From: Candidatus Woesearchaeota archaeon
GTDB taxonomy: Archaea > Nanobdellota > Nanobdellia > Woesearchaeales > DSVV01
Length of the DNA: 64,000 nt
Assembly: GCA_018661705.1 (NCBI GenBank)
Contig: JABJHR010000010.1
Span: 66,911-130,910 of the forward strand
Direction of reading: 5' to 3'
The notes beneath the pieces were generated by a model. It saw nothing but the letters and a program-made list of their open reading frames with translations. It ran no database searches and was not told the origin of the DNA. Shown here piece after piece: positions 12,936 through 58,060 of the stretch (positions within the stretch are counted from its first letter, which is position 1; the number at the start of each line of letters is the position of its first letter). The translations under genes were made by a program, and so were the position numbers.

Positions 12936-13024
12936 AACAACAAAAACGGCAGGGCTCACGGACTTTTGCAAGCAAAAATCCTATTCAGCTCTTTTCAATC
13001 GCCTCATCAGCCCGCAATTGTTGT
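12936..13024 (-). repeat. Repeat family B copy (B1)
   Basis: On the - strand: AACAACAATTGCGGGCTGATGAGGCG...GAATAGGATTTTTG-CTTG-CAAAAGTCCGTGAGCCCTGCCGTTTTTGTTGTT. Same architecture as B2-B6. Confidence 0.65.
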
Positions 13025-13225
13025 TTTCTTGTTTATTAGTGAACTTGTTTAGTATTTAAACTTTTCTAAAAATACCACATTTATCAAAAAAATACACAAT
13101 TGTGTACTGGTGTGGTGATTACACTGGTAAAGTATATACTTCTTGAGTGTCTACTAATGTGTAGGATGAACAATGAAACATTGTTTGCCTAAAATAATAC
13201 ATTTTTAAGAATGGAGGGAAGAAAA

Positions 13226-14188
13226 ATGGAAAAAGTAAAACAGAGATTAAAGGTAGGGGAAGTAAAAGTACACAAGAATTTAGCAGTTGCACCACTTTTG
13301 GGCAAAGATAGTGGTTTAGATTATCTTGTTTTTGATGAAGCAGTTAATCAAGGTTTGAGTGTTAGAGAAACAGGAGAGGTTCCAACATTACATTTTAAAA
13401 ATGAAACAGATAAAGAAGTTTTAATTTTGCAGGGTGAATATGTTACAGGCGGAAAACAAAATAGGATGGTTGCAACTAATGTTTACATGGCAAAAGGTTT
13501 TGATGGTCCAGTTCCTGTAAACTGCGTTGAACAAAGTAGGTGGTCAGGTAATGAAAGAGGCGGCTTTACATCCGGTAATAGAAGAGCTCCAGCATCTGTT
13601 TCTTTAATGGCAAGTGTAGGCCAAGGAGAAGTTTGGGGTGAAGTAAGAAGAATGACTGAATCACTTGGAACGCATACTTCTACTGGAGACATGGGTGCTT
13701 CTTATGCGCAAAGAGAAAGTGATTTAGCAGAATATTTATCAAATTTTGAATTTCAAGAAGGTGCAGTTGGAGTAATTGCAGCAATGCAGAGAGGAAAACA
13801 CAGAGTTTATGTTGCTGATGTTTTTGATCAAACAGCAACACTCCAAAAAAACTATAAAAAATTGTTAGAAAGCTATGCAATTGAAGCACTTAGTTACAAA
13901 GCAATTGGTTCTCAAGCAAAATCTGACATGCAGGCATTTCTTAAAGTAGCAGGTGACACACCATACCATAAGAGACAACCTGTAAGTTTAGGTGATGATT
14001 TAAAGACAGCAGCAGGTGCTGTAACTGGTTTTGCTTTAGTTTATCAGGAAACACCATTGTATGTGAATCTAGCTTCCAACTTTATGCCACAAACACAAGG
14101 ACCTGGTGCTGATAATTTTGATCCAGCACAGACAATGATCTTTGAGAGACCTGTACGTACAGGAATGAGTAGGAGATTTTTCAGGTGA
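13226..14188 (+). CDS. conserved hypothetical protein
   Basis: 320 aa from MEKVKQ (GGAGGG ribosome-binding site); motif ...GEYVTGGKQNRMVATNVYMAKGFDGPVPV...; no family assigned. Confidence 0.45.
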   Translation: MEKVKQRLKVGEVKVHKNLAVAPLLGKDSGLDYLVFDEAVNQGLSVRETGEVPTLHFKNETDKEVLILQGEYVTGGKQNRMVATNVYMAKGFDGPVPVNCVEQSRWSGNERGGFTSGNRRAPASVSLMASVGQGEVWGEVRRMTESLGTHTSTGDMGASYAQRESDLAEYLSNFEFQEGAVGVIAAMQRGKHRVYVADVFDQTATLQKNYKKLLESYAIEALSYKAIGSQAKSDMQAFLKVAGDTPYHKRQPVSLGDDLKTAAGAVTGFALVYQETPLYVNLASNFMPQTQGPGADNFDPAQTMIFERPVRTGMSRRFFR

Positions 14189-14307
14189 TAAAAATAGAAA
14201 AGTCGTAAAAGGATAAAGTTTAAATATTCTTTTTCTTTTCCTTTAATTTTGTGGGGTTGGTTTTAAGTAATGTGAAAACAGTAGATACCCTATCTTTGGT
14301 GTTAAAA

Positions 14308-14393
14308 AATACAACCACAATGGCCAGGTGAGGCGAAGCTGAATAGGACTTTTTACGCAGTAAAAAGGTCCGTCTGTGCCAATATTGTTGTTG
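14308..14393 (+). repeat. Repeat family B copy (B2)
   Basis: ACAACCACAATGGCCAGGTGAGGCGAAGCTGAATAGGACTTTTTAC-GCA-GTAAAAAGGTCCGTCTGTGCCAATATTGTTGTTG. Terminal stem AACAAC/GTTGTT, inner 11-bp hairpin. Confidence 0.7.
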
Positions 14394-14439
14394 TATTTTT
14401 AATTATTAAAAAAGTAAAAAACAAAAAGGTAAAAACAAA

Positions 14440-15051
14440 ATGATAGAAGCAGTAGTATTTGATTTGTGGTATACACTAGCACAAAAGGAAAGAGGAACAT
14501 CATCTGTTCTTCGTGGACATTTTGATATCCCTGATAGTCCTACTTTCATGGCCGAGTATGAAACTGCAATTCAACTTCAAGAATGGGCCTCAGTTACCGA
14601 GATGGCACAGAGTTTTTTGCAAGCGTTTAAGTTAGGTGTTACTCCTGCAAATGTTTCTTTTTTTACTACTGCTATTATTGAAGGTGCACAAGGTGCAAAG
14701 CCTTATGATTGGGTTCCTGAAGTTTTGCATGGATTATCTGAGAATTATAAATTAGCTCTTCTTTCTAACACTTCTACTTATGAAGTAATTGATCCTTCAT
14801 GGGGAATTGCTGATTATTTTAATGAAGTAGTTTATTCATGGGAAGCTGAAGCTATAAAACCTTCTGCAAAAAGTTTTCAAGCTGTTTGTTCTAGATTAGG
14901 TGTTCCACCAAAAAAATGTTTATTTGTTGATGATTGTTTAGCAAACATTGAAGCTGCACGAGAATTTGGAATGAAAGCAGTACACTTTAAAGGTTTTGAT
15001 GGCGGAGATGTATTGAAAAAAGAATTAAAAAAGTATGATGTTTATTTGTAA
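14440..15051 (+). CDS. HAD-superfamily hydrolase (subfamily IA, haloacid-dehalogenase-like, D-x-W/Y variant of motif I)
   Basis: FDLWYTL (motif I lacking the second Asp, as in 2-haloacid dehalogenases), LALLSNTS (motif II), K...FVDDCLANIEAA (motifs III/IV). Confidence 0.55.
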   Translation: MIEAVVFDLWYTLAQKERGTSSVLRGHFDIPDSPTFMAEYETAIQLQEWASVTEMAQSFLQAFKLGVTPANVSFFTTAIIEGAQGAKPYDWVPEVLHGLSENYKLALLSNTSTYEVIDPSWGIADYFNEVVYSWEAEAIKPSAKSFQAVCSRLGVPPKKCLFVDDCLANIEAAREFGMKAVHFKGFDGGDVLKKELKKYDVYL

Positions 15052-15077
15052 AAAGAGAATTCAATCTATACAAATAC

Positions 15078-16076
15078 ATGCGATTTTTCTTTTTTCCCTT
15101 CGGAATCTTTTTAAATCCAATTCCATTCCTTTCTTTTATGTCAAGACCAAATTTTGATTTTCCTGGGTTTAATGATTTAGAGGGATTTATAACACTTTTA
15201 TCTGATACTAGAGCAATCTTTAAAGAAGAACCTAATTATCAAGAGTTACCTTTAGACAGACCAATTGTTTTTGTTGGGGATACTCATGGAGATATTGAAA
15301 CAACAGAACAAATTTTTGATATGTTTTTTGGTACACATTTAATTGCTATGTTAGGGGATTATGTAACAAGAGCTCCTGTTGAACATGGTTCAATAAAGAA
15401 TATTCATTATTTATTTGAAGTAAAAAGATCTCATCCTGAAGATCTTATTTTATTAAGAGGAAACCATGAAACACCAGATCACGCTGGAATAATAGAAATT
15501 ATGCTTGATTTAAGAGAATTTGGCGTAGATGCTTGGCGTAATACATCTTCTACTCTTTATGGTACTTTTTCTGATATGCCTTATGTTGTTTCAACAGAAA
15601 ATGGATTATTGGGGTTACATGGGGGCTTGCCAGATATTAAATCTGTAAGGGGTTTAAAATTAGTTCCAAAAGGAATCGAAGGTTTTCCTAATAATGGCGA
15701 GGGACTTCCTGCTCATTATCAAACAGCATTACAAATACTTTGGAATGATCATGTTGCAACAGATGAACCATTAATTACTTTAGATGGTTCAAAAAAAGAA
15801 AAAGGAAATTCAGTTTATAATTATTCTAGGCATACTGGCAGATTATATAATCAACATCATTTCAACAACGTAATGAGTTTACTTGGAAAAAATGTTTTAG
15901 TAAGGGGTCATGATTATAATGAGAAAGGTTATGCTTTTGATGATAGGTTATTAACAATTTTTAGTGCATCAAAATTTGTAAATCATGGAAATTTAAAAGG
16001 GAAATATGTTGCTGTCATGGATGATCCTCAAAAAGAATTAAAAACTGCAAAAGAGTTAAGAATTGTACAATTATAA
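15078..16076 (+). CDS. PPP-family metallophosphoesterase (Ser/Thr protein phosphatase-like)
   Basis: GDTHGD, GDYVTRA, GNHE signature motifs; the true start may be the internal Met at 15138, since the N-terminal 20 aa are odd. Confidence 0.65.
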   Translation: MRFFFFPFGIFLNPIPFLSFMSRPNFDFPGFNDLEGFITLLSDTRAIFKEEPNYQELPLDRPIVFVGDTHGDIETTEQIFDMFFGTHLIAMLGDYVTRAPVEHGSIKNIHYLFEVKRSHPEDLILLRGNHETPDHAGIIEIMLDLREFGVDAWRNTSSTLYGTFSDMPYVVSTENGLLGLHGGLPDIKSVRGLKLVPKGIEGFPNNGEGLPAHYQTALQILWNDHVATDEPLITLDGSKKEKGNSVYNYSRHTGRLYNQHHFNNVMSLLGKNVLVRGHDYNEKGYAFDDRLLTIFSASKFVNHGNLKGKYVAVMDDPQKELKTAKELRIVQL

Positions 16077-16112
16077 TTTTCAAAAATAAAATTCTTCTTC
16101 TTTACAAATCTA

Positions 16113-17447
16113 TCAATCGTTTCTGTCTAACGCATCCTGACAATTTTCCTTCATTTGTTCTTTTCTTATTTTATTACATATGGATTTATCCTTGATTTCC
16201 ATAGCAACATTCCAATAACAGTCATCACCATCTCCCCAGTAATTCTCTTCAGCCTTATCGTCATATAAATCTTCACAAATTTCAAAGGAGGATGCTAAAT
16301 TAGTTAAAGCATTGTTTACTGCCAAACTAATAATTTTGATAATCTGTTTATCTCTGACTTCCCTCGGACAGAATTCCCTTCCATAATCCCCATGATATTT
16401 AATTATGTTTTCACAAATAGATTCATTTCCTGATACCATGGCAGTTCCCCAATAGCACCTATCAGACTCCCAATTTTCGTCTATTTCATATAATCCTTTG
16501 CAAATTTCTAGAGAATAGGATAAATTAATTGAAGCGTTTCCTATTGCTGAGTCCGTGAGTTTGTAAAACTGGCAACTACCAAACTCTTCAGAACATTCTA
16601 TTAAACTTATGGATGGTTCTTCAAAGACATCATTATAATTTTTTGTAATTGTTCTACATTCTTCATACGCAAAATCATCTATTTTAAATATCTCATTATA
16701 AAAACCAGGCATAAACGCAATTGAACAATTCTCAAATTCAAAAAAAGTGATGTTTAATTTATTATAGTTTGGAATTAAATCATTTGGCGCCGGAACTTCA
16801 GGACCTTGAATCTTTAAATATTGAAAATTCTGATTTGTACCTATTGGTCTTATATCTTTATACTTATAATTAATCTCTGTGAAGTTTAAATTATCTACTA
16901 ACCATGAAACAATGTATTCTTCAGATAATACTTTTCCAGTACTATCAGCATAGCGATATTTTTTTATTTCTGTAAAGATATACTCTTCGCTTAACAATGG
17001 TAGAAATAATGGTTCATATTCTTCTGCAAAAATAGTGTCTTGTGATATATATCTCATATTATCTGGTTGATTTAATTCTTTCATAATATCATTAACACAT
17101 GAAAATAATTCTTCCTTTGTTCCTGCAAACGATTCTAAATAAAGCGGTCTTGCATAAACTTCTCCGGTTCCTACTTCACCATAAGTATAGTCGCATCCGA
17201 TTGAATATCCTCCAAGATAATCTTTATAATCATATATACAAAATTCAAATTGATCTGTTGGAGAATGATAAGGCACTAATTTAACAATCAAAAAATACTC
17301 CCTTGAATTACAGTTAGGTATTTTTTCAATAATCTCTTCTATGTTAATGTTATTAGTTTCTTCATTATCCAGAACATGATTAGAACATCCTATTAAAAAA
17401 ACCACTAAAAAACATAATGCCAAAAGTTTTAATGTATTTGATTTCAT
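16113..17447 (-). CDS. Cys-rich secreted lipoprotein, unknown function
   Basis: Signal peptide plus lipobox-like LIGCS; internal duplicated motif CYWGTAMVSGNESICENI / CYWNVAMEIKDKSICNKI. Confidence 0.5.
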   Translation of the reverse strand: MKSNTLKLLALCFLVVFLIGCSNHVLDNEETNNINIEEIIEKIPNCNSREYFLIVKLVPYHSPTDQFEFCIYDYKDYLGGYSIGCDYTYGEVGTGEVYARPLYLESFAGTKEELFSCVNDIMKELNQPDNMRYISQDTIFAEEYEPLFLPLLSEEYIFTEIKKYRYADSTGKVLSEEYIVSWLVDNLNFTEINYKYKDIRPIGTNQNFQYLKIQGPEVPAPNDLIPNYNKLNITFFEFENCSIAFMPGFYNEIFKIDDFAYEECRTITKNYNDVFEEPSISLIECSEEFGSCQFYKLTDSAIGNASINLSYSLEICKGLYEIDENWESDRCYWGTAMVSGNESICENIIKYHGDYGREFCPREVRDKQIIKIISLAVNNALTNLASSFEICEDLYDDKAEENYWGDGDDCYWNVAMEIKDKSICNKIRKEQMKENCQDALDRND

Positions 17448-17541
17448 ATCAATATCTTTCTTTTATTTATTTATAAACTTTTTTAATAATTCACTTTGAT
17501 TTCATAAATCTATCAATCGTTTCTGTTTTAATTTAGTATAT

Positions 17542-18600
17542 TCAACTAAGTTTTTCTTTCCAATACAATTCTCCTAATTTAATTACAGCATTTCTGAATC
17601 CCTTACCTTTTGGATTTCCAATATGTTTCATTGCATCGATATAAGCTTCACTATCGATTGGACTCTTTGTTTCTGCCATACTACTATTACCCATATTTTC
17701 ATTACAATATAAGACAAATAGTTTTGTAACTGTATCCTTGATTGATTCAGCGGGAACATAATTATCAGGATCTTGCAAAAAATCCAACGCAGTATTTAAT
17801 CCGCAAAATTGTGATTCATAATTAAATCTGTTTGGGTTAATTATGATACCTTCAACTTTATCTGTAAGAGAAGAATCTCTACCCTTATAAGGATATACTG
17901 GTGCTCTTTCTGGTTTCTTACTGTCTGATGCAAAATAATTATCAAAAAGCATCACTGGCCATCCCAAATCAGGAATATCTTCTGCAGTTAATGTTCTATA
18001 CCACATGCTTCTTCTAGGTCCGACCCAGGTTATTGCAACATCCTTAGGCAAGACATCTAAAATTGGTTCCCAATAATCCATAACACTTATCCTTGGTCCA
18101 ACATATTCCTCACCACATATTGCTCTTAACTTTCCCTCAGTTCCCTCATACATTTGTCTTATCAGCTCTGCATGTGCTTTACCATCTTTTATTATAGCAT
18201 TATGTTTTGAACTAGTGGGATTAGCAGCTTCCCAGAATCCTGGGTGAGTGTCATCCATAAAAAGATAAATAGCATCTGCACCATTTGCTAGAAAATATTT
18301 TGCATTATTGATAATTCTCCAACGATCTTTAGGATGAGAACAATATCTGGAATCACCTGGGTGCATTCCTGCCCATATTTTTACGCCTTGATCTTTGGCT
18401 AATTGTTCTAAAATCTTAAACTCTTTTTTGTGTTCTTCTGAGATTGGGCTGTTAGCTGTTCCCCAACTTAATCTTGACCACACATAAAGATTATTTCTAC
18501 TCTCACCTATTCTTTTCACAAGGTCTTTTCTATGCTCTAATTCAAATTTCCTACCTTTATCTACTATTCCTTTAAGTTTGAATGTTTTTTTGTCTGTCAT
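17542..18600 (-). CDS. GH84-like beta-N-acetylglucosaminidase (O-GlcNAcase/hyaluronidase family) candidate
   Basis: N-terminal KGIVDKGRKF...NNLYVW resembles the GH84 motif G(V/I)(I/V)EGFYG...N.Y.YAPKDD. LFMDDTHP matches the catalytic DD pair region. Confidence 0.4.
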   Translation of the reverse strand: MTDKKTFKLKGIVDKGRKFELEHRKDLVKRIGESRNNLYVWSRLSWGTANSPISEEHKKEFKILEQLAKDQGVKIWAGMHPGDSRYCSHPKDRWRIINNAKYFLANGADAIYLFMDDTHPGFWEAANPTSSKHNAIIKDGKAHAELIRQMYEGTEGKLRAICGEEYVGPRISVMDYWEPILDVLPKDVAITWVGPRRSMWYRTLTAEDIPDLGWPVMLFDNYFASDSKKPERAPVYPYKGRDSSLTDKVEGIIINPNRFNYESQFCGLNTALDFLQDPDNYVPAESIKDTVTKLFVLYCNENMGNSSMAETKSPIDSEAYIDAMKHIGNPKGKGFRNAVIKLGELYWKEKLS

Positions 18601-18698
18601 TTTATTATGATTAATTCTATAAATAAAGAAATTGAATTCGATTTATATATTTTCTATTTTTATGACGAAAATATTTATAACTTGTAAACTATAATTGT

Positions 18699-22831: not shown

Positions 22832-22953
22832 AATATATAATTAAAGGGTTCTATTAATAAATATTTGTATAAATACATATTAAATTATATTTAAACATAG
22901 GATTTAGTAACAATGTCACATACAAAAAACAACAATGGCGCACTTTAATAATC

Positions 22954-23060
22954 CAACAATAATGGCACAGACTGGCCGGGGGTTGGCTCCTTCGGAGTGG
23001 CCAGTAGGACTAATTCGAACATAGTGAGAATTTGGACGTCTGTTGCCATTATTATTGTTG
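22954..23060 (+). repeat. Repeat family C copy (C2), immediately upstream of tRNA-Met
   Basis: CAACAATAATGGCACAGACTGGCCGGGGGTTGGCTCCTTCGGAGTGGCCAGTAGGACTAATTCGAACATAGTGAGAATTTGGACGTCTGTTGCCATTATTATTGTTG. A 19-bp closing stem, a CTCC-UUCG-GGAG hairpin, GGGGG. Confidence 0.65.
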
Positions 23061-23135
23061 GATTCATTATCTACTTATTTTCAATCAAAAACAGTAAAAA
23101 CATTTATAAACAAATTACTTTTCTTAAGACATCAT

Positions 23136-23876: not shown

Positions 23877-23943
23877 TACTACCAACTACCAACTACTAAC
23901 TACCAACTACCAACTACCAACTACCAACTACCAACTACCAACT
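23877..23943. repeat. heptanucleotide tandem repeat (CTACCAA)x9, then (CTTCATA)x3
   Basis: actaccaactaccaactactaactaccaactaccaactaccaactaccaactaccaactt read directly; lies in the 3' region after the lipoprotein gene. Confidence 0.8.
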
Positions 23944-24408
23944 TATAACCCACTTCATACTTCATACTTCATACTTCAAACTTAGAACTCATATCCCCCT
24001 TATCTACTCCCGAGTGATTTAATGTTTATTCTTTATGATTTTGCTAGTAGAAAGGTTGTATTCTTAAATTTCTTATATTTTATAATCTCCTTATCGCAAA
24101 GTTTATAAACTACCAATTACTATAAAGGAATACATTAAAAGAGTTGTGTTGGGCTTTATACGCCCTAGTATAGTACTAAGTATAGTACATCGTATAATGT
24201 TTCATAAAAGCATTAACTAGTAAACAAGAGGTTGAACTCTACTTTCCAAGTAGATAATGCTCTTAGCTTTATCTAATGCTTTAATCCAAGTAGATAAAAG
24301 AATAAAAAACGAGTCAGAAAACAAACAAAATAAGAAAAAAACAAATAAAACAAGCAAAATACATACATAAAATACAAAAAAGTACGGAAAAGAATTGAGG
24401 TGAAAAGA

Positions 24409-30693: not shown

Positions 30694-30734
30694 TTTTAGT
30701 TTTTCTAGTAATATATAGGGTTATAACGCCTTTC

Positions 30735-30780
30735 TACAATTGCGGATGCTTCTTTTTTCACTAGGATTTTTTCTATTTTC
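30735..30780 (-). repeat. Repeat family A, 5'-half fragment (reverse orientation)
   Basis: ACAATTGCGGATGCTTCTTTTTTCACTAGGATTTTT is the reverse complement of the A 5' end ...TAGTGAAAAAAGAAGCATCCGCAATTGT. Confidence 0.55.
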
Positions 30781-30911
30781 AGTTTTACTAAGATTGTAGT
30801 GAGAAAGAAGGGATTATCCCCTCAAAGTCCCCATTCAACCATCCTTTTACTATCATTAAATACTAAAACCGTACCCAAAGGCTTATATACTCCTGTTCTA
30901 TTCTATAACTG

Positions 30912-37157: not shown

Positions 37158-37235
37158 ATTAGCTCACCTTAGCTTAACTAAGTTAGGCTTATTTATATGT
37201 TTTTTGATTTTATGTGGTTCTTTTACTTTGAACAA

Positions 37236-37342
37236 AAAAAGTTTCGTGAGCTATATGTCCTTCGGACCTAGTGTTGTAGTGTGACATGCAGTGTAATACT
37301 CTTCAACAATTGCGGATGCTCCTTTTGTCACTAAGAATTTTA
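37236..37342 (-). repeat. Repeat family A, intact copy (A3, reverse orientation)
   Basis: Reverse complement reads AAAATTCTTAGTGACAAAAGGAGCATCCGCAATTGTTGAAGAGTATTACACTGCATGTCACACTACAACACTAGGTCCGAAGGACATATAGCTCACGAAAC...; downstream of the - gene 37395..39236. Confidence 0.7.
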
Positions 37343-37394
37343 GTTTTATTATAATTCTAATAGAAATAAATTAAAGAAAAAGAAAATAAAAAAA

Positions 37395-45185: not shown

Positions 45186-45280
45186 ATTAGAAGAAAATCG
45201 CTCATGTTTTTTATATGTTTTGGTCAGGTTTTGTGTTATTATAAGGAATTTTGTTTTTTTTATGTGAAAAAGAAAGATTA

Positions 45281-45516
45281 ATGAGTGACATGTCCTACGG
45301 ACCTAGTGTTTAATTTTATAATGTGGTGAGATAACAAAAAACAACAACAAAGGCACAGACGGACTTTTTCCAAAAGTCCTATTCGGCCGGTACTTGAGAG
45401 TTCGTAGAACTCACTCTCTTCGCACCACCTCATCTGGCCGTGTTGTTTTTTGTACTAAGAAGATAATATTTAATACTCTTTAACAATTGCGGATGCTATT
45501 TTTCTCACTAAGAGTT
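45281..45516 (-). repeat. Composite element: A 3'-half, B copy (B3, 45339-45448, with an extra internal hairpin), then A 5'-half, all in reverse orientation
   Basis: gagtgacatgtcctacggacctagtgtt ... aacaacaacaaaggcacagacggactttttccaaaagtcc...ggccgtgttgtt ... taatactctttaacaattgcggatgctatttttctcactaagag. Confidence 0.65.
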
Positions 45517-45549
45517 TTTATATCTGTAATATCAAAAAAGAAAATAATC

Positions 45550-48410: not shown

Positions 48411-48424
48411 TCTTGGAAAAAAAT

Positions 48425-48572
48425 CCTAGCGAAAAATAGCATTCGCAATTGTTAAAGAGTAATAATATTTAATATTTTAATACAAAAAATAACCATGGCC
48501 AGGCGAGGTGAAACCGAGTAGGATTTTTTGAGTGGAACGAAAAAAGTCCGTCTGTGCCTTTGTTGTTATTTT
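48425..48572 (+). repeat. A 5'-half (48425-48470) directly followed by a B copy (B4, 48486-48572)
   Basis: TAGCGAAAAATAGCATTCGCAATTGTTAAAGAGTAATAATATTT...AATAACCATGGCCAGGCGAGGTGAAACCGAGTAGGATTTTTTG-AGTGGAA-CGAAAAAAGTCCGTCTGTGCCTTTGTTGTTATTTT. Confidence 0.65.
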
Positions 48573-48600
48573 TTGTTCTTATACTTTCAAAGTTTTATTA

Positions 48601-49002: not shown

Positions 49003-49038
49003 AAAAACACTAATTTTATATACTATTTTCACAATGGA

Positions 49039-49921: not shown

Positions 49922-50072
49922 GCCAGCGTGGCACAATCTGGTACTGCGCAAGCCTGGAAATGTGCTTTTGCGCAAAGGTTAGCTTGTTGGCTTCGGCCTA
50001 TCCCGGTTCAAATATCAAACTGTGTTTAATACACAAAAAAACGCAGTTTTTTTGAATGTCCGGGCGCTGGCG
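49922..50072 (+). tRNA. tRNA-Ser (anticodon GGA) with two putative introns (37/38, 21 nt; T-loop, 46 nt)
   Basis: Hand-folded. Acceptor GCCAGCG/CGCTGGC, U8, 3-bp D-stem GCA/TGC, anticodon stem CAAGC/GCTTG with loop CUGGAAA, long variable arm TTGGCTTCGGCCTAT, T-arm CCCGG-TTCAAAT-[intron]-CCGGG, discriminator G, oligo-T. Mature length 84. Confidence 0.5.
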
Positions 50073-50140
50073 TTTTTTTATCTATCTAAGCTATTTCTTT
50101 CCATCAATTTTAAATATAACAATCTTTATAATATAATTTT

Positions 50141-51520: not shown

Positions 51521-51595
51521 TGTCTGGGAGTAACCACTTCTGAGTAGATATTATTCAAAAACTTTATAAATCCATATGTGATCTTTTGTTGTAAT

Positions 51596-52345: not shown

Positions 52346-52384
52346 TAACAAGTAAATTCAAAAATTTCTTTTCAAATTTTTCTA

Positions 52385-52876
52385 TTAATTCATGACAACA
52401 TAATAAATATCTTTTTCTCCACCAACACCTATTGCATCTCCGTCTGAGTTTGTTGAATATCCATATAAACCATCTTTTTCAACACTAACTTTTCCAGGTA
52501 TCTTGAATGATTGTCCAGCTTCAAATGTGCCGCAGTTAATATTATCTCCGTCTTCTTCACACCCCCAATAATTTTCTTCTGCATTACTTTTAATTCTAAT
52601 TCCAACTGCAGAATAATCAGAAAGATATGGTCTTACAGTATCTGCTGTTGTTACATCATCAACTATAAGAATTTGATAACTACATTTTCCAGAGGCCATA
52701 CAAACAATTGTATTAGGAGCAATAATTCCTTCCACAATTACATCTTTCCCTATTAATTCATTATTTCCAATAATATCTGAAGGTTTGTAAACATCAACTT
52801 CTTGTTCAATTACCTTTTTTGTGCATCCAAATGTTAGAACAATTAATATTAGTAGTAAGATAGTTTTATATTTCAT
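52385..52876 (-). CDS. secreted lipoprotein, unknown function
   Basis: Signal peptide plus LTFGCTKK lipobox. Confidence 0.45.
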   Translation of the reverse strand: MKYKTILLLILIVLTFGCTKKVIEQEVDVYKPSDIIGNNELIGKDVIVEGIIAPNTIVCMASGKCSYQILIVDDVTTADTVRPYLSDYSAVGIRIKSNAEENYWGCEEDGDNINCGTFEAGQSFKIPGKVSVEKDGLYGYSTNSDGDAIGVGGEKDIYYVVMN

Positions 52877-53072
52877 GGTAATATGTTTTATTAAGAAAGA
52901 AGTTTAAATAATTTGTTGTTAACTAGGGATGAAAAAGTAATTCCCCTCTTCTATTTATAGAGGTTTTTAGGATTTAGGTGTAGATTTATGTATCTTAATT
53001 AGCTTAATACTTGCAAAATCATGCAAATTAATTTAAACTTGGCTGCATTTCCTTTAAAATAAGGGGGATGAA

Positions 53073-53807
53073 GTGATTTCAATGCAAAAACAAGATTTAG
53101 ATGCAAAAGTAGAGGATAATTCTAACAACAGGTGGCTATCTGGCAAATTTGGAAGATTATGTGCTATGACTTCATTATTATTTATTGCATTAACTGGTTG
53201 TGCTGAAAAACCAGTTGAGATTACTGGGAAAGTAACAAGAATAGAGGCTCGTTCTTCAACATCTGATCCTTATAAAAATAAAACAACTGGAGAAATAGAA
53301 CGCGAGTTTTACACCTCATGTAATATATATTTAGATTCAGGAAATGGGGAATACAAATTAGAAATGATTAGTGGATATAGTATCGGTATATGTGATCAAG
53401 TTATTGAAGCTAGTGCAGGAGTTCAATGTTGTGAGGAGTTTAAGTCAGAATATGAAAACGGTGAACTAAAAGAAACAGTTGATTCAACTGATACTGAACA
53501 AGATGTAGATAAAGCAGCTAAGAGAGATCAATGTAATGGTGTTAAGTGTTATTTTTTTGATTCAAATCCTACTGATTACAATTATAAAGCAGTTATTGAA
53601 GATAAATCAAAATCACCGGTAGTTACATGTTCTGTCCATGTTGATGATATTAGTACAGAAACTGGTAGTAATGGTAATGAAATAAAAAAAGTTAATGTTG
53701 ATTATAGGTACTGGATGGAGAAAAATGAATCCTCTACATTTTTAGTTAAAAAATCACCTTTCATGAGAAAAAAAACTGATTTTTTCTTTCACTATTTAAA
53801 GCGTTAA
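53073..53807 (+). CDS. Cys-containing secreted protein, unknown
   Basis: Internal hydrophobic segment LLFIALTGCAEK (lipobox-like); 244 aa. Confidence 0.4.
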   Translation: MISMQKQDLDAKVEDNSNNRWLSGKFGRLCAMTSLLFIALTGCAEKPVEITGKVTRIEARSSTSDPYKNKTTGEIEREFYTSCNIYLDSGNGEYKLEMISGYSIGICDQVIEASAGVQCCEEFKSEYENGELKETVDSTDTEQDVDKAAKRDQCNGVKCYFFDSNPTDYNYKAVIEDKSKSPVVTCSVHVDDISTETGSNGNEIKKVNVDYRYWMEKNESSTFLVKKSPFMRKKTDFFFHYLKR

Positions 53808-53978
53808 ATAAGTACTATTAGTAACTAATTTTTGCAATTTCTATTATCAAGAACAAATATCTTTATAAATAACATTAACATACTAGACTTTGGTGATATG
53901 GTTTTTGGTGGCGACTTCGGTTGCCTCCCAGGAACCATTTTATTTAATCTTAATTATTTAAAAAAAGGAGGGATATTT

Positions 53979-54554
53979 ATGGAAGAAAATAATGGCTTAG
54001 GTCATGAGTATACTGATAAAGATAATCTTAGTTCTGGTGAGAATAATTCTACTGAAATGAATACAGATGAAGGTAATTCTAATCCAGCTAATAATGATGA
54101 AAACAGTTCTAATGAAATGAATGCTAATGAAGGTAGTCCTAATGAAGTTAATACTACTGAAAATAGTTCTACGGAAATGAGTTCTGATGAAGATAGTTCT
54201 AACATGCCGGATTCTGATACTGATAATTCTGAGGAAGAAATGGAAGAAGTAGAGGTATGTGCTACTTGCAGTAAATCAGATGAAGAATGTAATTGTCCTT
54301 GTGCTAAATGTGGGAAATCTGCAGAAGAATGTCAATGTCCTTGCTCAGATTGTGGAAAAGTAGAGTGCGAATGTGAATGTAGTGATGAAGTAGAGGAAAT
54401 TGCAGAGCATGCTGATGATAAAGTAGATGCATTAGTTTCTTTATTAGTAAAAAAAGGAATTATTACAGAAGCAGAATTACAAAGTGAATATGATGATTTG
54501 TTTGAAGAGGATAAAGAAGAAAAAGAACATCCTGGAGAACCAATCGCAAATTAA
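53979..54554 (+). CDS. acidic S/N/E-rich protein with a CxxC-rich putative metal-binding block
   Basis: GGAGGG ribosome-binding site then MEENNG...; tandem aa repeats (NSTEMNTDEGNS.../NSSNEMNANEGS...); CATCSKSDEECNCPCAKCGKSAEECQCPCSDCGKVECECECSDE. Confidence 0.45.
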   Translation: MEENNGLGHEYTDKDNLSSGENNSTEMNTDEGNSNPANNDENSSNEMNANEGSPNEVNTTENSSTEMSSDEDSSNMPDSDTDNSEEEMEEVEVCATCSKSDEECNCPCAKCGKSAEECQCPCSDCGKVECECECSDEVEEIAEHADDKVDALVSLLVKKGIITEAELQSEYDDLFEEDKEEKEHPGEPIAN

Positions 54555-54577
54555 TTTTTTTCTTTTTATAATTCTTA

Positions 54578-55483
54578 TTAAATCAAGGATCTTAAAGTAT
54601 TAACATAAGTTGCTAATTCTCTGTCAGTATACTTGTCAGTTTTCACTTCTAAAATAATTGGTAATGCAGAACGTCTGAATCTTTTTATGAATCTATCAAA
54701 GTGTGGTAGGTTTTCAGGTGTTGCAAAGATGTGTTGGTCGTCTTTATAATCAGTACTACTAATATAACCCTCGTTTGAATGAAAATGTAGATTATTAACT
54801 TCACCATAACTGAATAATGCTGCAATTGACATTGCATGATTAAGTCTTCTATGGCCAGTATCGACTGTAATTCCAACATGAGATGTATCTCCAATTAGTA
54901 AATCAATTTGTTTTGGTCTATAACCTAAATTAGACACCCCAATTCTTTTTGGTGCAACCATATTTTCAATATCAAACTTAAAACCATAACCTTTTCTAAT
55001 AATTAATTCATCAATTTGTTTATATAATTCAATTCCTGCATCTAAAGCTTCCTTTTCACTCCATTCAACTATGTCTACTAATTTAAAAGCAGGCGGATGC
55101 ATTGTTAATACTGTTCCAAGATCATATTTTTCATGAAGTTCTCCAAACATTTCCATTCTTGATAATAATAGGGGGTGATGAGATCTATCTGCTTGACATA
55201 AGCCTGTTTCAGCAGTTGGGTCCTGAAAATCTTCAAAAGGAATATGAATTTGTGCTTCAATACCTTTTTTCTTTAGTAATAGCATTATATTACTGGCATT
55301 TTCATGATTAATAGAAAACTTTTGCCCATCAAATGAATACAATTCAATATTACTTTTTCTCTTCAAATGATCTGGTTTAAGTTCAACAAGATCAACAGTT
55401 GGGACATTAGTTACTCTGACTAACTCTTCAGCAGATCTAACATGAAACCCTAGTTTGTTTCTATATTCTTGGTCATTGGGCAT
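54578..55483 (-). CDS. xylose-isomerase-like TIM-barrel protein (sugar-phosphate isomerase/epimerase or AP-endonuclease-2 family)
   Basis: HFHSNEGY, ITVDTGH, acidic metal-ligand pattern; 301 aa. Confidence 0.45.
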   Translation of the reverse strand: MPNDQEYRNKLGFHVRSAEELVRVTNVPTVDLVELKPDHLKRKSNIELYSFDGQKFSINHENASNIMLLLKKKGIEAQIHIPFEDFQDPTAETGLCQADRSHHPLLLSRMEMFGELHEKYDLGTVLTMHPPAFKLVDIVEWSEKEALDAGIELYKQIDELIIRKGYGFKFDIENMVAPKRIGVSNLGYRPKQIDLLIGDTSHVGITVDTGHRRLNHAMSIAALFSYGEVNNLHFHSNEGYISSTDYKDDQHIFATPENLPHFDRFIKRFRRSALPIILEVKTDKYTDRELATYVNTLRSLI

Positions 55484-55569
55484 AATAGAAAGGTTACAAT
55501 TGGGGTATAAATAGTTTTTGCTGTTTTTTAGACATTTCTAGTAATATTTGACTTAAAAAACAAAATTCA

Positions 55570-55835
55570 CGAGAAACATGTCCTTCGGACCTAGTGTTGT
55601 AGGAGTTATTACTTTCTTTTATGATACAAAAAATAACAACTGGGCCAGATGAGGCAAAGCCGAATAGGATATTTTACAAAGTAAAATGTCCGTCTGTGCC
55701 GTTGTTGTTATTGTTGCTTGATGTTAATCATGTTTAATAATTTCGACTTTAGTCGTAATTATTATTGTTTTTTGCTAATGCTTTGTTTACTAAATAAAAT
55801 TACAATTGCGAATGCTACTTTTCTCACTAATATTT
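55570..55835. repeat. Composite element: A 3'-half (reverse), B copy (B5, 55632-55712, forward), spacer, A 5'-half (reverse)
   Basis: acatgtccttcggacctagtgttgtag ... AATAACAACTGGGCCAGATGAGGCAAAGCCGAATAGGATATTTTAC-AAA-GTAAAATGTCCGTCTGTGCCGTTGTTGTT ... ttacaattgcgaatgctacttttctcactaa. Confidence 0.65.
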
Positions 55836-55916
55836 AGTTTTTTACTTTAATTTAAAGATTGATTAAGATAATTTCGCACAAAATATAAATACTTCTTAAC
55901 TATTAATAACTAAATC

Positions 55917-57866
55917 ATGAAAAAAACAATACTTGTTTTAATAATGGTCTTCTTAGTGAGCATTTCTATGGTTTTTGCTACCGATTGTGTATGGAAGAAG
56001 GTCATGGAGAGCTCTACTGAGTACAAAGGTCTTTTTGAAAATAAAGGCGACGTTTATGTTGCAGAAGCTGGAAAAATTCATTTTTCTGAAGATTATGCAA
56101 CTACATTTGAAGAATATGGTGAAAAAGAAACTTCTACATTTATAGATTTAGAATTAGATGGTAATGATTTAATTGCTGTATCCACAAAAGCAGCGTATTT
56201 AGTAGAGGATGATGGAAAGGAGAAAAAGTTTACAAAGTTTTTTGAAACTGATCCAATGGATAAATTTAGTTTGTTCGTAGCAATTGGTTCTGATTTTTAT
56301 GGTACTGATGGAAGTGAAAAAATAATTTTTAAAGACGGTACAGATAATGAAGACCAAATTGGAGAAGAAACAGCAGCTCTTACTGGTGTTTCTGATATTT
56401 CAGAGATGGTTAATATTGACAAACAATTATGGGTTGTTCCCAAAGCAGATTCAAAGTTACATTATTCCAAAAACCCATTAGACGTTTGGTATACAACTGC
56501 AAACATGGGAAGTATTCAAGACCTAGGGAATGTTAATTCAATTGGTGATAATGTCTATATTACTGGTAGAAAGAAAGGTGAAGATCTTAAAATTAAATTT
56601 ACAGTAACAGATAGTTCTTCATGGAGTGATTATCCTGCACAAATAATTGGTGTTGAAGAATTTAATGCATTATTAATGTTTGAATCTACCAACCCATTTG
56701 CTTTAGTTAAGTTAAATGATGGTTCTGTTAAAATCTATAAACAATATTCTAACACAGAATGGAAAGAATATGGGACTGGATTAGGAGCAGAAATTGTTGG
56801 TGGTGTTAGTTTAATTAAAATGAGTAATGATAAATTACTTCTTTTGGCGAATACAACCGGAGATAAAAATGCATTGTTAAGATGTGAACCAAATAGTAAA
56901 CCTGTTGCTAAAGCGGGCTTAGATCAAAAAGTTTTTGTTGGTGAAACAGTTAAATTGGATGGTACAAAATCATTTGATTCTGACGGTGACAAAATGAGTT
57001 ATGATTGGCAACAACCAGCTGTTGATAAAGTAATGTTAACTGGTGGTACGACTTCATCTCCTGAATTTTTAGCTTCTACTGCTGGAAAATATTTATTTAA
57101 TCTTTTTGTTCAAGATGAGTTTGGTGGAGCATCCTCTCCCGATACTGTTGTTGTTGACGTCATAAAGGGAACAGAATATTATTTAGGGTTAGAATCTGAA
57201 ACCGATCATTTTTCTTGGGTAGAGGGTAATGATTACAAGTTAGGTAGTGTTTTCTTTGATGGAAGCAAACAAAATGATTATTACTTAGCATTTAAATTTT
57301 ATCCAGGAGTTGGTAATGTAGTTAACACACCACTTCCTTTTGCAACAGCAACTTCTACAAGTATTTTCACAAATAAACCTGTGCAGAAAGTTATATTCAA
57401 TGACGTTAATAGTATTAAAATTGCGTCCGTCTACCTTAAGTCTAGTGCAAATTTAGAAGCAAAAGGTGATGATGTAACTTTAAAGATTAGAAAAGGAAGT
57501 ATTGGTGGTGAAGTAATTGCAGAATCTACACAATTTGTTTCAAAGAAAACTTATCCAGAGTGGGTAGAGTTTGTTTTTGCAGGAGCTGGTGATAATGTTG
57601 ATGTTAGCGACGAAGCAGATACAAGCGACGACGTTGATACTGAAGAAACAGAAACAGAAGAAGATACAACAACTACTGACACAACTAAATCTAGCGACGA
57701 CAAAGAAGTAACAACTGATGCAGACGAAACAAAAGATGATGAAACAAAAACAACAAATGCAATGTTTGGATTATCCAAATGGATGGCTGCTGGTATTGTT
57801 GGAGTTGTTTTATTAATAATAATTGCAGTTGTTGTTTTAATATTTCTTTTGGCAAGAAAGAAGTAG
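55917..57866 (+). CDS. cell-surface protein with PKD domain, acidic Thr/Asp-rich stalk and C-terminal TM anchor plus basic tail (possible archaeosortase-type substrate)
   Basis: Signal peptide; PKD motif KPVAKAGLDQKVFVGETVKLDGTKSFDSDGDKMSYDWQ; C-terminal ...MAAGIVGVVLLIIIAVVVLIFLLARKK. Confidence 0.55.
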   Translation: MKKTILVLIMVFLVSISMVFATDCVWKKVMESSTEYKGLFENKGDVYVAEAGKIHFSEDYATTFEEYGEKETSTFIDLELDGNDLIAVSTKAAYLVEDDGKEKKFTKFFETDPMDKFSLFVAIGSDFYGTDGSEKIIFKDGTDNEDQIGEETAALTGVSDISEMVNIDKQLWVVPKADSKLHYSKNPLDVWYTTANMGSIQDLGNVNSIGDNVYITGRKKGEDLKIKFTVTDSSSWSDYPAQIIGVEEFNALLMFESTNPFALVKLNDGSVKIYKQYSNTEWKEYGTGLGAEIVGGVSLIKMSNDKLLLLANTTGDKNALLRCEPNSKPVAKAGLDQKVFVGETVKLDGTKSFDSDGDKMSYDWQQPAVDKVMLTGGTTSSPEFLASTAGKYLFNLFVQDEFGGASSPDTVVVDVIKGTEYYLGLESETDHFSWVEGNDYKLGSVFFDGSKQNDYYLAFKFYPGVGNVVNTPLPFATATSTSIFTNKPVQKVIFNDVNSIKIASVYLKSSANLEAKGDDVTLKIRKGSIGGEVIAESTQFVSKKTYPEWVEFVFAGAGDNVDVSDEADTSDDVDTEETETEEDTTTTDTTKSSDDKEVTTDADETKDDETKTTNAMFGLSKWMAAGIVGVVLLIIIAVVVLIFLLARKK

Positions 57867-57918
57867 TTTTTTTAATTTTTTATTTCTTTTAATTTAACTT
57901 GTTAAAAAACAAAAATTT

Positions 57919-58060
57919 GTGAGTGACATGTCCTTCGGACCTAGTGTTGTAGAGATTAATTATTTTCTTTTATGATACAAAAATAACAACAATGGCCAGG
58001 CGAGGTTAAACCGAGTAGTATTTTTTCGACAGAATGGAGAAAAAATGCGTCTGTGCCATT
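57919..58060. repeat. A 3'-half (reverse) followed by a B copy (B6, 57980-58060, forward)
   Basis: gtgagtgacatgtccttcggacctagtgttgtag ... AACAACAATGGCCAGGCGAGGTTAAACCGAGTAGTATTTTTTC-GACAGAATGGA-GAAAAAATGCGTCTGTGCCATTACTTGGTGTT. Confidence 0.65.

Follow-up and report, generated by a model that had tools for sequence, protein, structure and literature searches.

A conserved three-way-junction repeat in the intergenic DNA of DPANN archaea, a likely non-autonomous mobile element

The stretch of 64,000 nucleotides analyzed here (the window) belongs to a Woesearchaeota-like DPANN archaeon and carries at least six copies of a structured element of about 90-110 nt, family B, one strand of which forms a conserved hairpin with three arms, i.e. 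a three-way junction. We regard it as fairly probable that family B represents a mobile, non-autonomous palindromic repeat that occupies the intergenic DNA of DPANN archaea in high copy number, of the kind represented by REP/REPIN sequences, MITEs and the transposase-free 'small mobile repeats' (SMRs) of Haloquadratum. The original prediction left the choice between a MITE-like mobile hairpin and a new family of sRNAs; the evidence favours a mobile element over a dedicated sRNA gene, because the copies show neither an orientation bias nor a promoter at fixed distance, copy B1 and probably B2 are absent from an orthologous site, copies are nested behind truncated ones, and near-identical copies occur at unrelated sites.

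A comparison of 115 distinct copies, taken from related genomes and from metagenomes, led to a revised fold, which is best described for copy B5 (55629..55716, plus strand; 83.2 bits in the CM search described below), the structure of which was derived from covariation. AT-rich inverted arms of the type (A)nYAACAAC...GTTGTTR(T)n, in B5 at 55626-55641 and 55701-55716, form a long outer stem around the junction. Helix P1, GGC-CAG/CUG-u-GCC, is formed by GGCCAG at 55643-55648 and by the 3' strand with its bulged u at 55694-55700. P2 consists of R-U, Y-R' and tandem sheared G.A/A.G pairs followed by three base pairs and a loop of the GAA or GNNA type; RY (55649-55650) precedes the first GA (55651-55652), GGC-AAA-GCC occupies 55653-55661, and the partner R'U (55664-55665) follows the second GA (55662-55663). 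A single unpaired A (55666) lies 3' of P2, and the variable hairpin P3 with its U-rich/A-rich strands (55667-55691) is followed by an unpaired GU (55692-55693). The architecture that had been proposed as common to all six copies is corrected in that RY pairs with R'U; pairing of RY with the 3' GU, as in the MFE fold, was rejected since covariation joins RY to R'U.

A covariance model (CM) built from related copies recovered the six window copies at their predicted positions with 58-85 bits (E 2.5e-16 to 4.6e-25), and the next-best match in the window reached 21 bits. B1 (12935..13027, minus strand; 58.5 bits, E 2.5e-16) is flanked by divergent PhoU-like and ARPP-1 genes, with the PhoU-like ATG 27 nt downstream, and represents a variant subfamily with P1 GGGCU/AGCCC, the outer-helix variant noticed before, and an 11-nt apical module GA-UU-GAA-AA-GA on P2; a second member lies at L020:4798-4888. 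B2 (14308..14396, plus; 81.2 bits, E 8e-24) is flanked by the ARPP-1 and HAD-hydrolase genes. B3 (45336..45453, minus; 69.7 bits) sits between the halves of a 'family A' module and does contain the extra hairpin reported for it, which is however an extension of P2 (about 34 nt, UACG cap) with counterparts at L060:992 and L095:6653. B4 (48483..48574, plus; 85 bits, E 4.6e-25) and B6 (57980..58073, plus; 70.2 bits) carry apical modules on P3, the 11-nt GA-GU-GGA-AC-GA and GA-CA-GAA-UG-GA, respectively; the 3' arm of B6 is degenerate, and B5 and B6 flank a PKD-domain gene (55917-57866) as direct repeats. The expectation of further copies is borne out by a divergent seventh member at 22950..23063 (plus; 20.9 bits, E 6e-4), which keeps the family B arms and has P1 GGCACAGAC/GUCUGUUGCC, the junction AGUAG, a P3 module GA-AC-AUA-GU-GA and, as P2, a GC-rich UUCG hairpin without the GA...GA motif, giving a density of 6-7 copies per 64 kb. 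A related element at 62262..62339 (plus; 15.4 bits, E 0.04) has AATAACA/TGTTATT arms and a GG..CC closing helix as in family B; its core is a different one, GC-rich and similar to P2 of the 22950 element, and it has relatives at L101:4915 and L108:938. All strings, P3 hairpin variants and loops listed in the original prediction were found in the sequence, and the elements are GC-rich islands as described there (38-45% GC in a window of 31%). Each of the six copies folds better than its own shuffles (z -3.6 to -5.7).

Beyond the window, 157 CM matches were reduced to the 115 distinct copies, which come from Woesearchaeota and Nanoarchaeota MAGs and from Saanich Inlet and other metagenomes; about 10-20% of the genes in these genomes adjoin a copy. 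A search of Rfam 15 gave no match at gathering thresholds or at E<=10, hence family B corresponds to no known family there, and the statement that it is not a tRNA is supported. Compensatory change, claimed from six copies, became stronger with 111 distinct copies compared to 500 shuffles: 98.9% of cells are paired against 86.6% in the shuffles, 15 of 20 pairs show double-sided changes, none of the 500 shuffles reaches the observed values, and slid registers give at most 50% pairing. Examples are the Y:R' pair (C-G 81, U-A 29 and other 1 in one count, CG 80, UA 26 and 2 mismatches in another), the second P2 pair (GC 52, CG 41, UA 11) and a P1 pair (A-U 92, G-C 16). P3 comprises 857 Watson-Crick pairs, 63 G.U and one A.C, an asymmetry which indicates that the fold is strand-specific. 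With RNA parameters, 112 of the 115 copies fold more stably as top strand than as bottom strand, and with DNA parameters 111 of 115 do so. Pairing and strand asymmetry together support the earlier view that it is the fold of a single strand, and not the primary sequence, that is under selection.

Which nucleic acid folds is suggested by the loops. P2 is capped by GAA (56), GTTA (17) or GATA (6), and P3 by GAA (36), CTTG (10), GTA (8) or GGA (5); among the simple P2/P3 loops GNRA occurs once and UNCG never. The terminal loops are those of the DNA mini-hairpins d(GCGAAGC), d(CCGAAGG), d(GCGTTAGC) and d(gCTTGc), and melting temperatures of 76.5 C for d(GCGAAGC), 69.5 C for d(GCGTTAGC) and 71 C for d(GCGATAGC) have been reported, compared to 39 C for r(GCGAAAGC) (PMC13037366). 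Judged from the sequence of the loops, the repertoire suggests single-stranded DNA rather than RNA, since DNA mini-hairpin motifs prevail and GNRA and UNCG are nearly absent or absent. RNA-like traits also occur, namely c(UACG)g caps in B3 and L060:992, in both on the extended P2, and UUCG loops in elements related to family B, and the tolerated G.U pairs, the tandem G.A and the strictly conserved junction bases would fit a functional RNA equally well.

Family B could also represent multi-copy structured non-coding RNAs or RNA-level cis elements acting in stability, processing or protein binding, which we consider rather unlikely. The three-way junction with tandem G.A would then be a protein-binding or catalytic RNA core and the arms a stem for processing or termination, and each copy would be either one of a dispersed set of sRNA genes or a module transcribed together with its neighbours. 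Such a role is consistent with the strand-specific fold that keeps G.U and essentially lacks A.C, with the invariance of the GA...GA-R-U-A and GU junction nucleotides across genomes with differing arms, with the UACG/UUCG caps, with the T-run 3' of every copy and with the lack of an Rfam match, which would make the family new. Moreover, the helix-tip modules GA-NN-NNN-N'N'-GA look like archaeal K-loops, which bind L7Ae. The loops GAA, GTTA, GATA and CTTG, however, give very stable hairpins in DNA but weak ones in RNA, about one copy per 10 kb would be extreme for a paralogous sRNA family, and copies are nested, truncated and in one case, probably two, missing at an orthologous site. The gene context argues in the same direction. 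Among 97 copies, 37 lie between two genes of the same orientation as the element, 32 between two genes of the opposite orientation, 17 between divergent and 11 between convergent genes, so that tandem contexts (37 sense, 32 antisense) reveal no orientation preference. No promoter was found at a fixed distance: beyond position -16 on the upstream side the information content is nil, and hence there is no positioned TATA box.

All family B copies are intergenic, gene ends are often 7-45 nt away, and the 3' arm ends in T4-7, as by symmetry does the complement of the 5' arm. Host-selected bidirectional transcription terminators or insulators have to be considered, in which a very stable hairpin with A-run and T-run stops the archaeal RNA polymerase from either side and the conserved core serves only to nucleate a stable fold. 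Transcription termination at oligo-T tracts is established for archaea and fits the element ends, and the observed independence of placement from orientation agrees with this role. As the reason for the existence of family B this explanation is nevertheless improbable: 17 of the 97 copies separate divergent genes, whose start regions require no terminator, B1 lies 27 nt upstream of an ATG within what can only be the 5' leader, and the element is lacking at orthologous sites. Furthermore, oligo-T alone is sufficient in archaea, which leaves the strand-specific junction with its invariant unpaired bases unneeded, and nested copies and identical copies at new sites are left unexplained. A terminator role is thus best seen as a side effect; with a T5-7 run after a strong hairpin in both orientations, copies of a mobile repeat would probably be tolerated, or even useful, as bidirectional transcription stops.

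The mobile repeat is supported by the distribution of the copies. Family B spreads by copy-and-paste within genomes, with copies 100%, 97.7% and 96.5% identical in unrelated flanks, and close relatives differ by gained or lost copies: B1 is absent at the orthologous site of a 90%-identical contig (L125) and in the syntenic L126, and B2 is probably absent in L125, which ends at this site. Copies also land in or beside other repeats, including older family B copies. In at least 12 places full copies lie directly 3' of 5' fragments of another subfamily, which usually stop near a ...RYGAG/UAAG point, tandem 3' fragments are present as well, and another repeat, which is contiguous at other places, lies in two halves around B3 and likewise around B5. 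Some observations count against mobility. The ortholog comparisons yielded no clean empty site and no demonstrated target-site duplication. Orientations are mixed on a 397-kb contig (10 plus, 6 minus), so that a replication-strand bias as in IS200/IS605 is not obvious, and a core kept across MAGs labelled as different orders, with arms varying by genome, is more conserved than usual for a purely selfish short repeat.

A further reading takes family B for attC-like recombination sites, either belonging to archaeal integrons or scattered as solo attC sites. The folded strand recognized by an integron integrase would then comprise an R box (..AAC / GTT..), an unpaired spacer and an L box, with the bulged U/T of P1 as extrahelical base and P2 plus P3 as variable terminal structure. 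Indeed, the arms end ...CAAC beside an internal loop and the opposite side restarts GTTG..., the extrahelical T in P1 is conserved, the fold is single-stranded and strand-specific, one gene is flanked by B5 and B6 as direct repeats, and integrons have been reported in archaea. Even so, this is a most improbable reading, because of the RYYYAAC/GTTRRRY boxes only YAAC/GTTR is matched, the supposed variable terminal structure is the most conserved part, the reverse of attC, and fragment junctions fall at the junction core and not at G|TT. The window holds no unidirectional array (orientations -,+,-,+,+,+, among housekeeping genes), and no integrase gene was seen in it.

Returning to the mobile repeat, family B might fold in the form of single-stranded DNA, such as that of the lagging-strand template, and be copied by a trans-acting single-strand-specific enzyme. 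The best candidate would be the IS200-type Y1 (HUH) transposase of these genomes, by analogy with REP/RAYT and with the T-shaped parvovirus ITRs nicked by HUH Rep. The link is only circumstantial and concerns one locus, where a sense copy from the most recently active subfamily is followed, about 110 nt further downstream, by a 164-aa Y1_Tnp gene (PF01797, E 1e-29), and the left end of the unit carries an AAAAAGC-GAA/GTTA-GCTTTTT mini-hairpin of the P2 type. Homologous IS200-like units on other DPANN contigs have no B copy nearby and end hairpins unlike family B, a B copy adjoins about 10-20% of genes in these genomes in any case, and among the Pfam-annotated gene calls of the window (roughly 2-53 kb) no transposase was annotated.

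Regarding known structures, family B shares with hammerhead ribozymes and k-turns a three-way junction with one helix extended by tandem sheared G.A/A.G, and B1 and L020:4798 even read CUGAUGAGG...CYGAAUAG...GUG. However, most copies have CAGGCGA or CAGAUGA and thus do not keep U4 and A6 of the hammerhead core, and the nucleotide preceding the first GA is paired to the one that follows the second GA; a hammerhead was rejected for lack of the A15.1-U16.1/H17 arrangement and of an Rfam hammerhead match. A classical k-turn is excluded by covarying Watson-Crick pairs on both sides of G.A and by the missing 3-nt bulge. The T-shaped ITRs of parvoviruses such as AAV, which are read as ssDNA by an HUH nuclease, also combine a long stem with two short hairpin arms and 3-nt loops, a likeness of mechanism only. 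Mini-hairpin sequences identical to family B P2 (GCGAAGC/CCGAAGG type) are contained in ssDNA origins (PMC13037366). Such viral or plasmid replication origins occur once or twice per replicon and not as dispersed chromosomal repeats.

Correia/NEMIS and RPE elements resemble family B in their length of about 100 nt, long terminal inverted repeats and multi-copy intergenic occurrence, and within one genome the same arms enclose different cores (B, the 22950 variant and the 62262 family). In contrast to them, family B has no demonstrated target-site duplication and no parent IS found to share its ends, conserves the core and not the ends between genomes, and is under structural selection on a single strand, an outcome that a transposase working by double-strand cut-and-paste would not predict. 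With the bacterial REP/REPIN sequences and their RAYT enzymes (REP-associated tyrosine transposases) family B has several traits in common: hundreds of copies per genome, strictly extragenic, occur as singletons and inverted pairs, an imperfect palindrome is maintained through compensatory change, copy content varies between close relatives, and the proposed driver is a Y1/HUH enzyme acting on a folded single strand. A conserved (G/A)TAG directly 5' of P3 and CGTC directly 3' of P3 both correspond to tags of REP superfamilies (PMC3733652). Family B is 3-4 times longer, with a three-way junction in long AT-rich arms instead of a single hairpin of 20-40 nt, and its GTAG is ATAG in 26% of copies, covarying with a partner base. 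An enzyme of the RAYT class (class 2) was not found with it; the only Y1 gene seen belongs to the typical IS200 genes of subclass 1.1 and has structured ends of its own, and a survey from 2018 lists subclass 1.1 only, and no REP-associated TnpA, for Archaea (PMC6006769). PATEs are without terminal inverted repeats and have IS605-like subterminal palindromes, which family B lacks, and the passages drawn on here make no mention of a three-way-junction core or covariation for SMRs (PMC3119063). The host is a DPANN archaeon at 30% GC and not a haloarchaeon, and the likeness is one of description. The SMRs of Haloquadratum walsbyi have inverted terminal repeats unrelated to known transposons, make no target duplication, prefer to land inside other mobile elements including IS605-type ends, and are mobilized in an unknown way (PMC3119063). 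SMR-A/PATE and family B are alike in being archaeal, of non-coding length and far more numerous than transposons (PMC3119063), and the landing of family B in older B copies, between family-A modules and directly beside an IS200-like left end corresponds to the preference described for SMRs.

The strings originally quoted for six copies of family B, an intergenic three-armed repeat of about 90-110 nt, are present in all six by direct reading of the sequence. A covariance model built from 21 family B copies recovered exactly these six in the window with 58-85 bits, namely B1 at 12935-13027(-), B2 at 14308-14396(+), B3 at 45336-45453(-), B4 at 48483-48574(+), B5 at 55629-55716(+) and B6 at 57980-58073(+), while the next match, a divergent seventh member at 22950-23063(+), reached 21 bits. 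The elements form local GC-rich islands as had been proposed (38-45% GC vs 31% for the window), and each of the six is more stable than its own dinucleotide shuffles (z of -3.6 to -5.7). It was also correctly stated that they are not tRNAs, as an ARAGORN cloverleaf search returned no tRNA or tmRNA gene in the window. With gathering thresholds, Rfam 15 matched nothing anywhere in the window; a cutoff relaxed to E<=10 brought up only chance-level matches, for B5 and B1 (E 0.19-10). The genes for RpoE/Rpb7, Spt4 and ribosomal protein S27e near family B copies point to an archaeal host, as does the match of the window, at 99.9-100% identity, with contigs of Woesearchaeota-type MAGs and with a contig from a Saanich Inlet metagenome. 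Three other assemblies with the window proteins (L001, L123 and L124) show the same 99.9-100% identity and are hence uninformative.

The copies fold into a three-way junction within long AT-rich inverted arms, which comprises the stem P1 (GGC-CAG/CUG-u-GCC), the helix P2 with its two GA dinucleotides and the variable hairpin P3. The decisive evidence comes from the bases flanking the GA dinucleotides. The pyrimidine before the first GA and the purine after the second combine as C-G in 80, as U-A in 26 and as a mismatch in 2 of 108 parsed copies, and on the model-based alignment the same pair is C-G in 81, U-A in 29 and other in one case. This covariation indicates that the two positions are paired and that P2 is longer than the energy fold shows, consisting of an R-U pair, the Y-R' pair, tandem G.A/A.G, three more pairs and a loop. 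Hence, the minimum free energy pairing of RY with the 3' GU was rejected in favor of RY-R'U. The tandem GA is kept almost throughout (5' GA in 105 and 3' GA in 107 of the 108 copies), and the inner P2 pairs covary as well, with GC 88, AU 13 and GU 5 at pair 1, GC 52, CG 41 and UA 11 at pair 2, and CG 97 and UA 9 at pair 3. One P1 position alternates between A-U (92) and G-C (16-17), and double changes occur in seven of nine P3 pairs. The claim of compensatory changes was thus borne out: 98.9% of 2137 cells pair compared to 86.6% in column shuffles, a value somewhat inflated by fitting the alignment to a closely related structure, and both-sided changes were found in 15 of the 20 pairs of the whole structure. 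The covariation score was 0.355 vs 0.147 after shuffling, no observed measure was equalled in any of 500 shuffles, and pairing fell to 26-50% when the 3' partners were shifted by 1-3 columns. The decisive Y:R' pair (22-92) is absent from the model's structure, so its covariation is independent of the fitting. Conserved yet unpaired are the A between P2 and P3, the GU between P3 and P1 and the bulged U in P1. The tips of P2 and P3 accept insertions, either a recurrent 11-nt module (GA-NN-NNN-N'N'-GA) or long hairpins as in B3. The arms, (A)nYAACAAC and GTTGTTR(T)n, represent terminal inverted repeats, with conservation spanning positions -15 to +19 relative to the core; palindrome-extension dynamic programming was discarded for defining the element ends, because it runs too far in AT-rich flanks.

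The fold has a strand. The P3 pairs include 857 Watson-Crick, 63 G.U and one A.C combination. With RNA parameters the given strand, on which the fold is drawn, is the more stable of the two in 112 of 115 copies, and with DNA parameters in 111 of 115. These counts indicate selection on one strand rather than on a double-stranded palindrome, in agreement with the original proposal of RNA or single-stranded DNA as the target. Between the two, mainly the loops favor DNA. Simple P2 loops are GAA (56), GUUA (17) and GAUA (6), simple P3 loops are GAA (36), CUUG (10), AAA (9), GUA (8), UUUA (7) and GGA (5); GNRA occurs once and UNCG never among the simple terminal loops, which is unusual for RNA. Together with their closing pairs they read GCGAAGC, CCGAAGG, GCGTTAGC, GCGATAGC and gCTTGc, i.e. 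DNA mini-hairpin motifs, and the d(gCNNGc) class is known from DNA tetraloop selections. From its motifs, the family B core probably acts as single-stranded DNA. DNA mini-hairpins of this kind melt at 76.5 C for d(GCGAAGC), 69.5 C for d(GCGTTAGC) and 71 C for d(GCGATAGC) compared to 39 C for r(GCGAAAGC), and such sequences have been found at single-strand DNA origins (PMC13037366). A structured RNA family new to Rfam is a serious rival, however, and the DNA reading is weakened by the UACG/UUCG caps that certain P2 extensions and related elements carry.

The genomic placement bears on whether the family is an sRNA or a MITE-like hairpin, the two options initially offered. All copies are intergenic, and the 97 copies with both neighbours called lie tandem-sense (37), tandem-antisense (32), divergent (17) or convergent (11); the equal sense and antisense placement rules out a strand-specific 5' or 3' UTR element. 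When 101 copies were aligned on the core, information was confined to -15 to +19 and no TATA-like signal appeared at a fixed distance. The missing orientation bias and promoter argue against a dedicated sRNA, and termination at the flanking T-runs is likely a side effect. The mobile repeat, on the other hand, is favored by placement, by nesting and by absence in relatives. B1 is absent from L125, a relative with a 90%-identical ARPP-1 ortholog that carries another short repeat in its place, and from the more distant syntenic relative L126, which has kept the divergent control region; B2 is very probably absent from L125 as well, the contig of which ends at that site. At 12 or more sites, a full-length element of one subfamily (arms AAAATAACAAC) stands immediately behind the 5' portion of an element from a different subfamily (arms AAATCCAACAAC). 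This older element is usually truncated right behind ...RYGAG or a degenerate UAAG, in one case inside P3, and such 5' parts sometimes occur several in series; 3' parts with flanking DNA are also found in tandem arrays. Copies with 100%, 97.7% and 96.5% identity have unrelated flanks. Moreover, the core is kept between genomes while the arms differ (e.g. GTGATGATGAT/ATCATCATCAC), and within one genome the same arms surround different cores (B, the 22950 variant and the 62262 family). Collectively, the placement, the absence in relatives, the nesting and the near-identical copies at unrelated loci are the marks of a repeat copied to new sites with fast turnover.

No direct repeats suggesting a target-site duplication were evident at the ends, and a clean empty site was not recovered: the search with 134 flank pairs gave self matches only, and the search for homologs of the HAD gene to close the B2 site returned the protein itself. 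Half-element nhmmer profiles were too insensitive for degenerate 5' fragments. Orientation, examined with a view to replication-strand bias, is mixed on one 397-kb contig (10 + and 6 -). The left flank reads ..AG| before 10 of 12 copies of one subfamily and before three of four IS200-like units, and both end in TTTC|, a post hoc pattern that offers a weak lead. At the loci L064:1229-1308(+) and L089:261-350(-) (the same as L005:1217-1243), the unit duplicated in tandem consists of the 3'-terminal third of a B copy with 25-40 nt of adjoining flank; the junctions carry A-rich microhomology and look like hairpin-induced replication slippage.

Several other repeats accompany family B. Family A consists of two modules, A-left (GTGAGTGACATGTCCTTCGGACCTAGTGTTGTAG), a hairpin with UNCG-type loop that covaries in related loci, and A-right (TAATACTCTTCAACAATTGCGGATGCTCTTTTTCACTAAG); it has no Rfam match, and its modules often lie downstream of genes with a T-run after them. 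The halves are contiguous at three window sites, 2756-2851(-), 11855-11950(-) and 37232-37371(+), and are parted at two, by B3 (45267-45332 / 45471-45548) and by B5 (55555-55620 / 55790-55867), while single modules occur at 3574-3630, 30724-30801, ~48430-48465 and 57905-57970. A related GC-rich core, GGTGCTGGTGGGGGTGGGTTGGCTCCGTCGGAGTACCCGCCAGCTGCC, is found within the same AATAACA/TGTTATT arms as in family B at 62262-62339(+) in the window and at two related loci, L101:4915-5024(-) and L108:938-1048(-), indicating that several core types share one kind of arm per genome; the divergent seventh copy (22950-23063) has a P2 domain similar to this core. The alike small hairpins aatttcgactttagtcgtaatt (55740-55765) and aattcctgactttagtcggaatt (58083-58108), ~30 nt downstream of B5 and B6, place both copies within a direct duplication of ~250 nt flanking the PKD-domain surface-protein gene at 55917-57866. 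In related contigs (L024:3200-3500(-), L022, L079 and L104), several B copies are followed downstream by another short hairpin, ACAACAAAAGGRGCCTGCCGGCYTGTTAAAAAA, that recurs two or three times. Intergenic short tandem repeats of the ACTACCA / ACTTCAAACC type occur at 23878-23992 and 1747-1781, and L125 has a comparable CCTTCYAAACC repeat (~545-590) where B1 would otherwise stand. The palindrome ATACACAATTGTGTAC at ~13053-13140, in the divergent control region between a PhoU/AbrB-like gene and the ARPP-1 gene, is kept in L125 (90%-identical) and L126 (48%-identical, syntenic), and is probably a shared operator and promoter. Finally, a 90-nt periodic repeat in the ORF at 3919-4437(-) (copies at 3925-4173) is unrelated to family B and looks like a low-complexity Lys/Glu/Ala-rich coding repeat.

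Beyond the window, a pattern scan of one genome per species identified 15 true copies, in two Woesearchaeota MAGs, one Nanoarchaeota MAG and two MAGs labelled Methanosarcinales (contigs of 36-40% GC, binning taken as labelled), besides three GC-rich chance matches; those in Methanoculleus and Sphingomonas were rejected as such. A looser pattern, with no constraint on the RY dinucleotide, on any part of P2 or on the base that follows the second GA, found at least 103 loci in metagenomes, and the covariance model gave at least 157 matches with at least 115 distinct sequences on the fetched loci. Viral contigs yielded a single chance match within coding-like sequence. Although DPANN archaea have very small genomes, family B makes up about 1% of the sequence examined, and the window holds 6-7 copies per 64 kb, approximately one per 10 kb.

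How the repeat is copied may be related to an IS200-like Y1 transposase. A scan of all ORFs in ~0.86 Mb of fetched DNA, with an IS608 TnpA query, found one gene of 164 aa at L050:74-568(-), the same as L094:3342-3836(-) (Pfam Y1_Tnp, E 1e-29), ~110 nt downstream of a sense B copy that belongs to the most recently active subfamily, with an inverted copy 1.1 kb downstream of the gene. Like this gene, its homologs on other DPANN contigs, at L127:2501-2935, L133:2501-2935, L136:864-1295 and L138:2501-2935, are solitary IS200-like Y1 genes lacking tnpB; the homologs have no B copy close by, which makes the link circumstantial. The structured ends of the IS200-like units are conserved. The left end begins with GGTTCC and has three hairpins, the third being an AAAAAGC-GAA/GTTA/GTAA-GCTTTTT mini-hairpin, and the right end combines an outer stem with an 8x4 internal loop bearing (A/G)TAG and an inner hairpin closed by a TTTA loop. 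The family B hairpins differ from these and have the GCGAAGC-type mini-hairpin alone in common, and no insertion sequence with family B arms was seen in the ~0.86 Mb of loci.

The best-supported reading sees family B as a mobile palindromic repeat (REP/SMR/MITE-like) carried by DPANN archaea, the three-way-junction core of which is strand-specific and covaries strongly. A further, rather doubtful step would make it the first archaeal REP/REPIN-like system, a dispersed repeat with a single-stranded DNA junction as its replicating form. This T- or Y-shaped junction of ultra-stable DNA mini-hairpins and tandem G.A pairs might then be read and copied in DPANN archaea by a Y1/HUH enzyme or a hitherto undescribed single-strand recombinase, and the strictly conserved junction (GA..GA-R-U-A, GU, bulged T) could be the recognition or cleavage centre. 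More remotely, the junction itself might have catalytic activity as a small self-cleaving nucleic-acid motif of a new type, and the breakage of fragments there would then be accounted for. As a mobile single-stranded DNA repeat, family B would extend REP/REPIN-type biology to Archaea, supply a defined branched DNA substrate with strong covariation, on which structure recognition by HUH and other single-strand enzymes can be examined, serve as a marker for strain typing and explain assembly breaks in Woesearchaeota MAGs. As RNA, it would be a new and widespread archaeal family, for which the three-way-junction model is well supported. Under both readings, the structure and the covariance model can be deposited and tested.

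Comparison with known RNAs gave no match. The hammerhead ribozyme, suggested by CUGAUGAGG in B1, fails at the core positions and in covariation: it needs C3-U4-G5-A6-N7-G8-A9, G12-A13-A14, A15.1-U16.1 and H17, whereas the B consensus is C-A-G-R-Y-G-A ... G-A-R-U-A, and Rfam reports no hammerhead match for family B. Tandem sheared G.A pairs and the GA-N7-GA modules at the helix tips resemble the kink-turn or K-loop bound by L7Ae; a classical k-turn was rejected, since there is no 3-nt bulge and covarying Watson-Crick pairs adjoin the G.A pairs on both sides. H/ACA, C/D, SRP and RNase P RNAs do not fit in architecture, and Rfam is silent. Among mobile repeats, family B resembles REP/REPIN elements in being a high-copy, extragenic, imperfect palindrome, but it is branched and ~90-110 nt long, whereas REPs are hairpins of 20-40 nt. 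The foot of a REP hairpin is marked by GTAG or CGTC (PMC3733652); in family B, GTAG (~74% of copies) or ATAG (~26%) precedes P3 and CGTC follows it in most copies, both inside the junction and not at the element end. In a 2018 survey of Y1 enzymes, Archaea had the classical IS200 subclass only and no REP-associated class (PMC6006769). The terminal inverted repeats are MITE-like, and the long arms also set family B apart from IS200/IS605-derived PATEs, which lack terminal inverted repeats and carry subterminal palindromes of a resident IS. Integron attC sites form unidirectional arrays that separate cassettes and adjoin, or derive from, an intI platform, unlike family B with its mixed orientations and housekeeping neighbours, and no integrase is annotated on the window parts covered by Pfam-annotated gene calls. 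The small mobile repeats (SMRs) of Haloquadratum are transposase-free, have inverted ends unrelated to known transposons, make no target duplication, insert into other mobile elements and are mobilised in an unknown way (PMC3119063). The likeness to SMR-A is one of behaviour, in which the Haloquadratum repeats are the closest archaeal precedent for family B.
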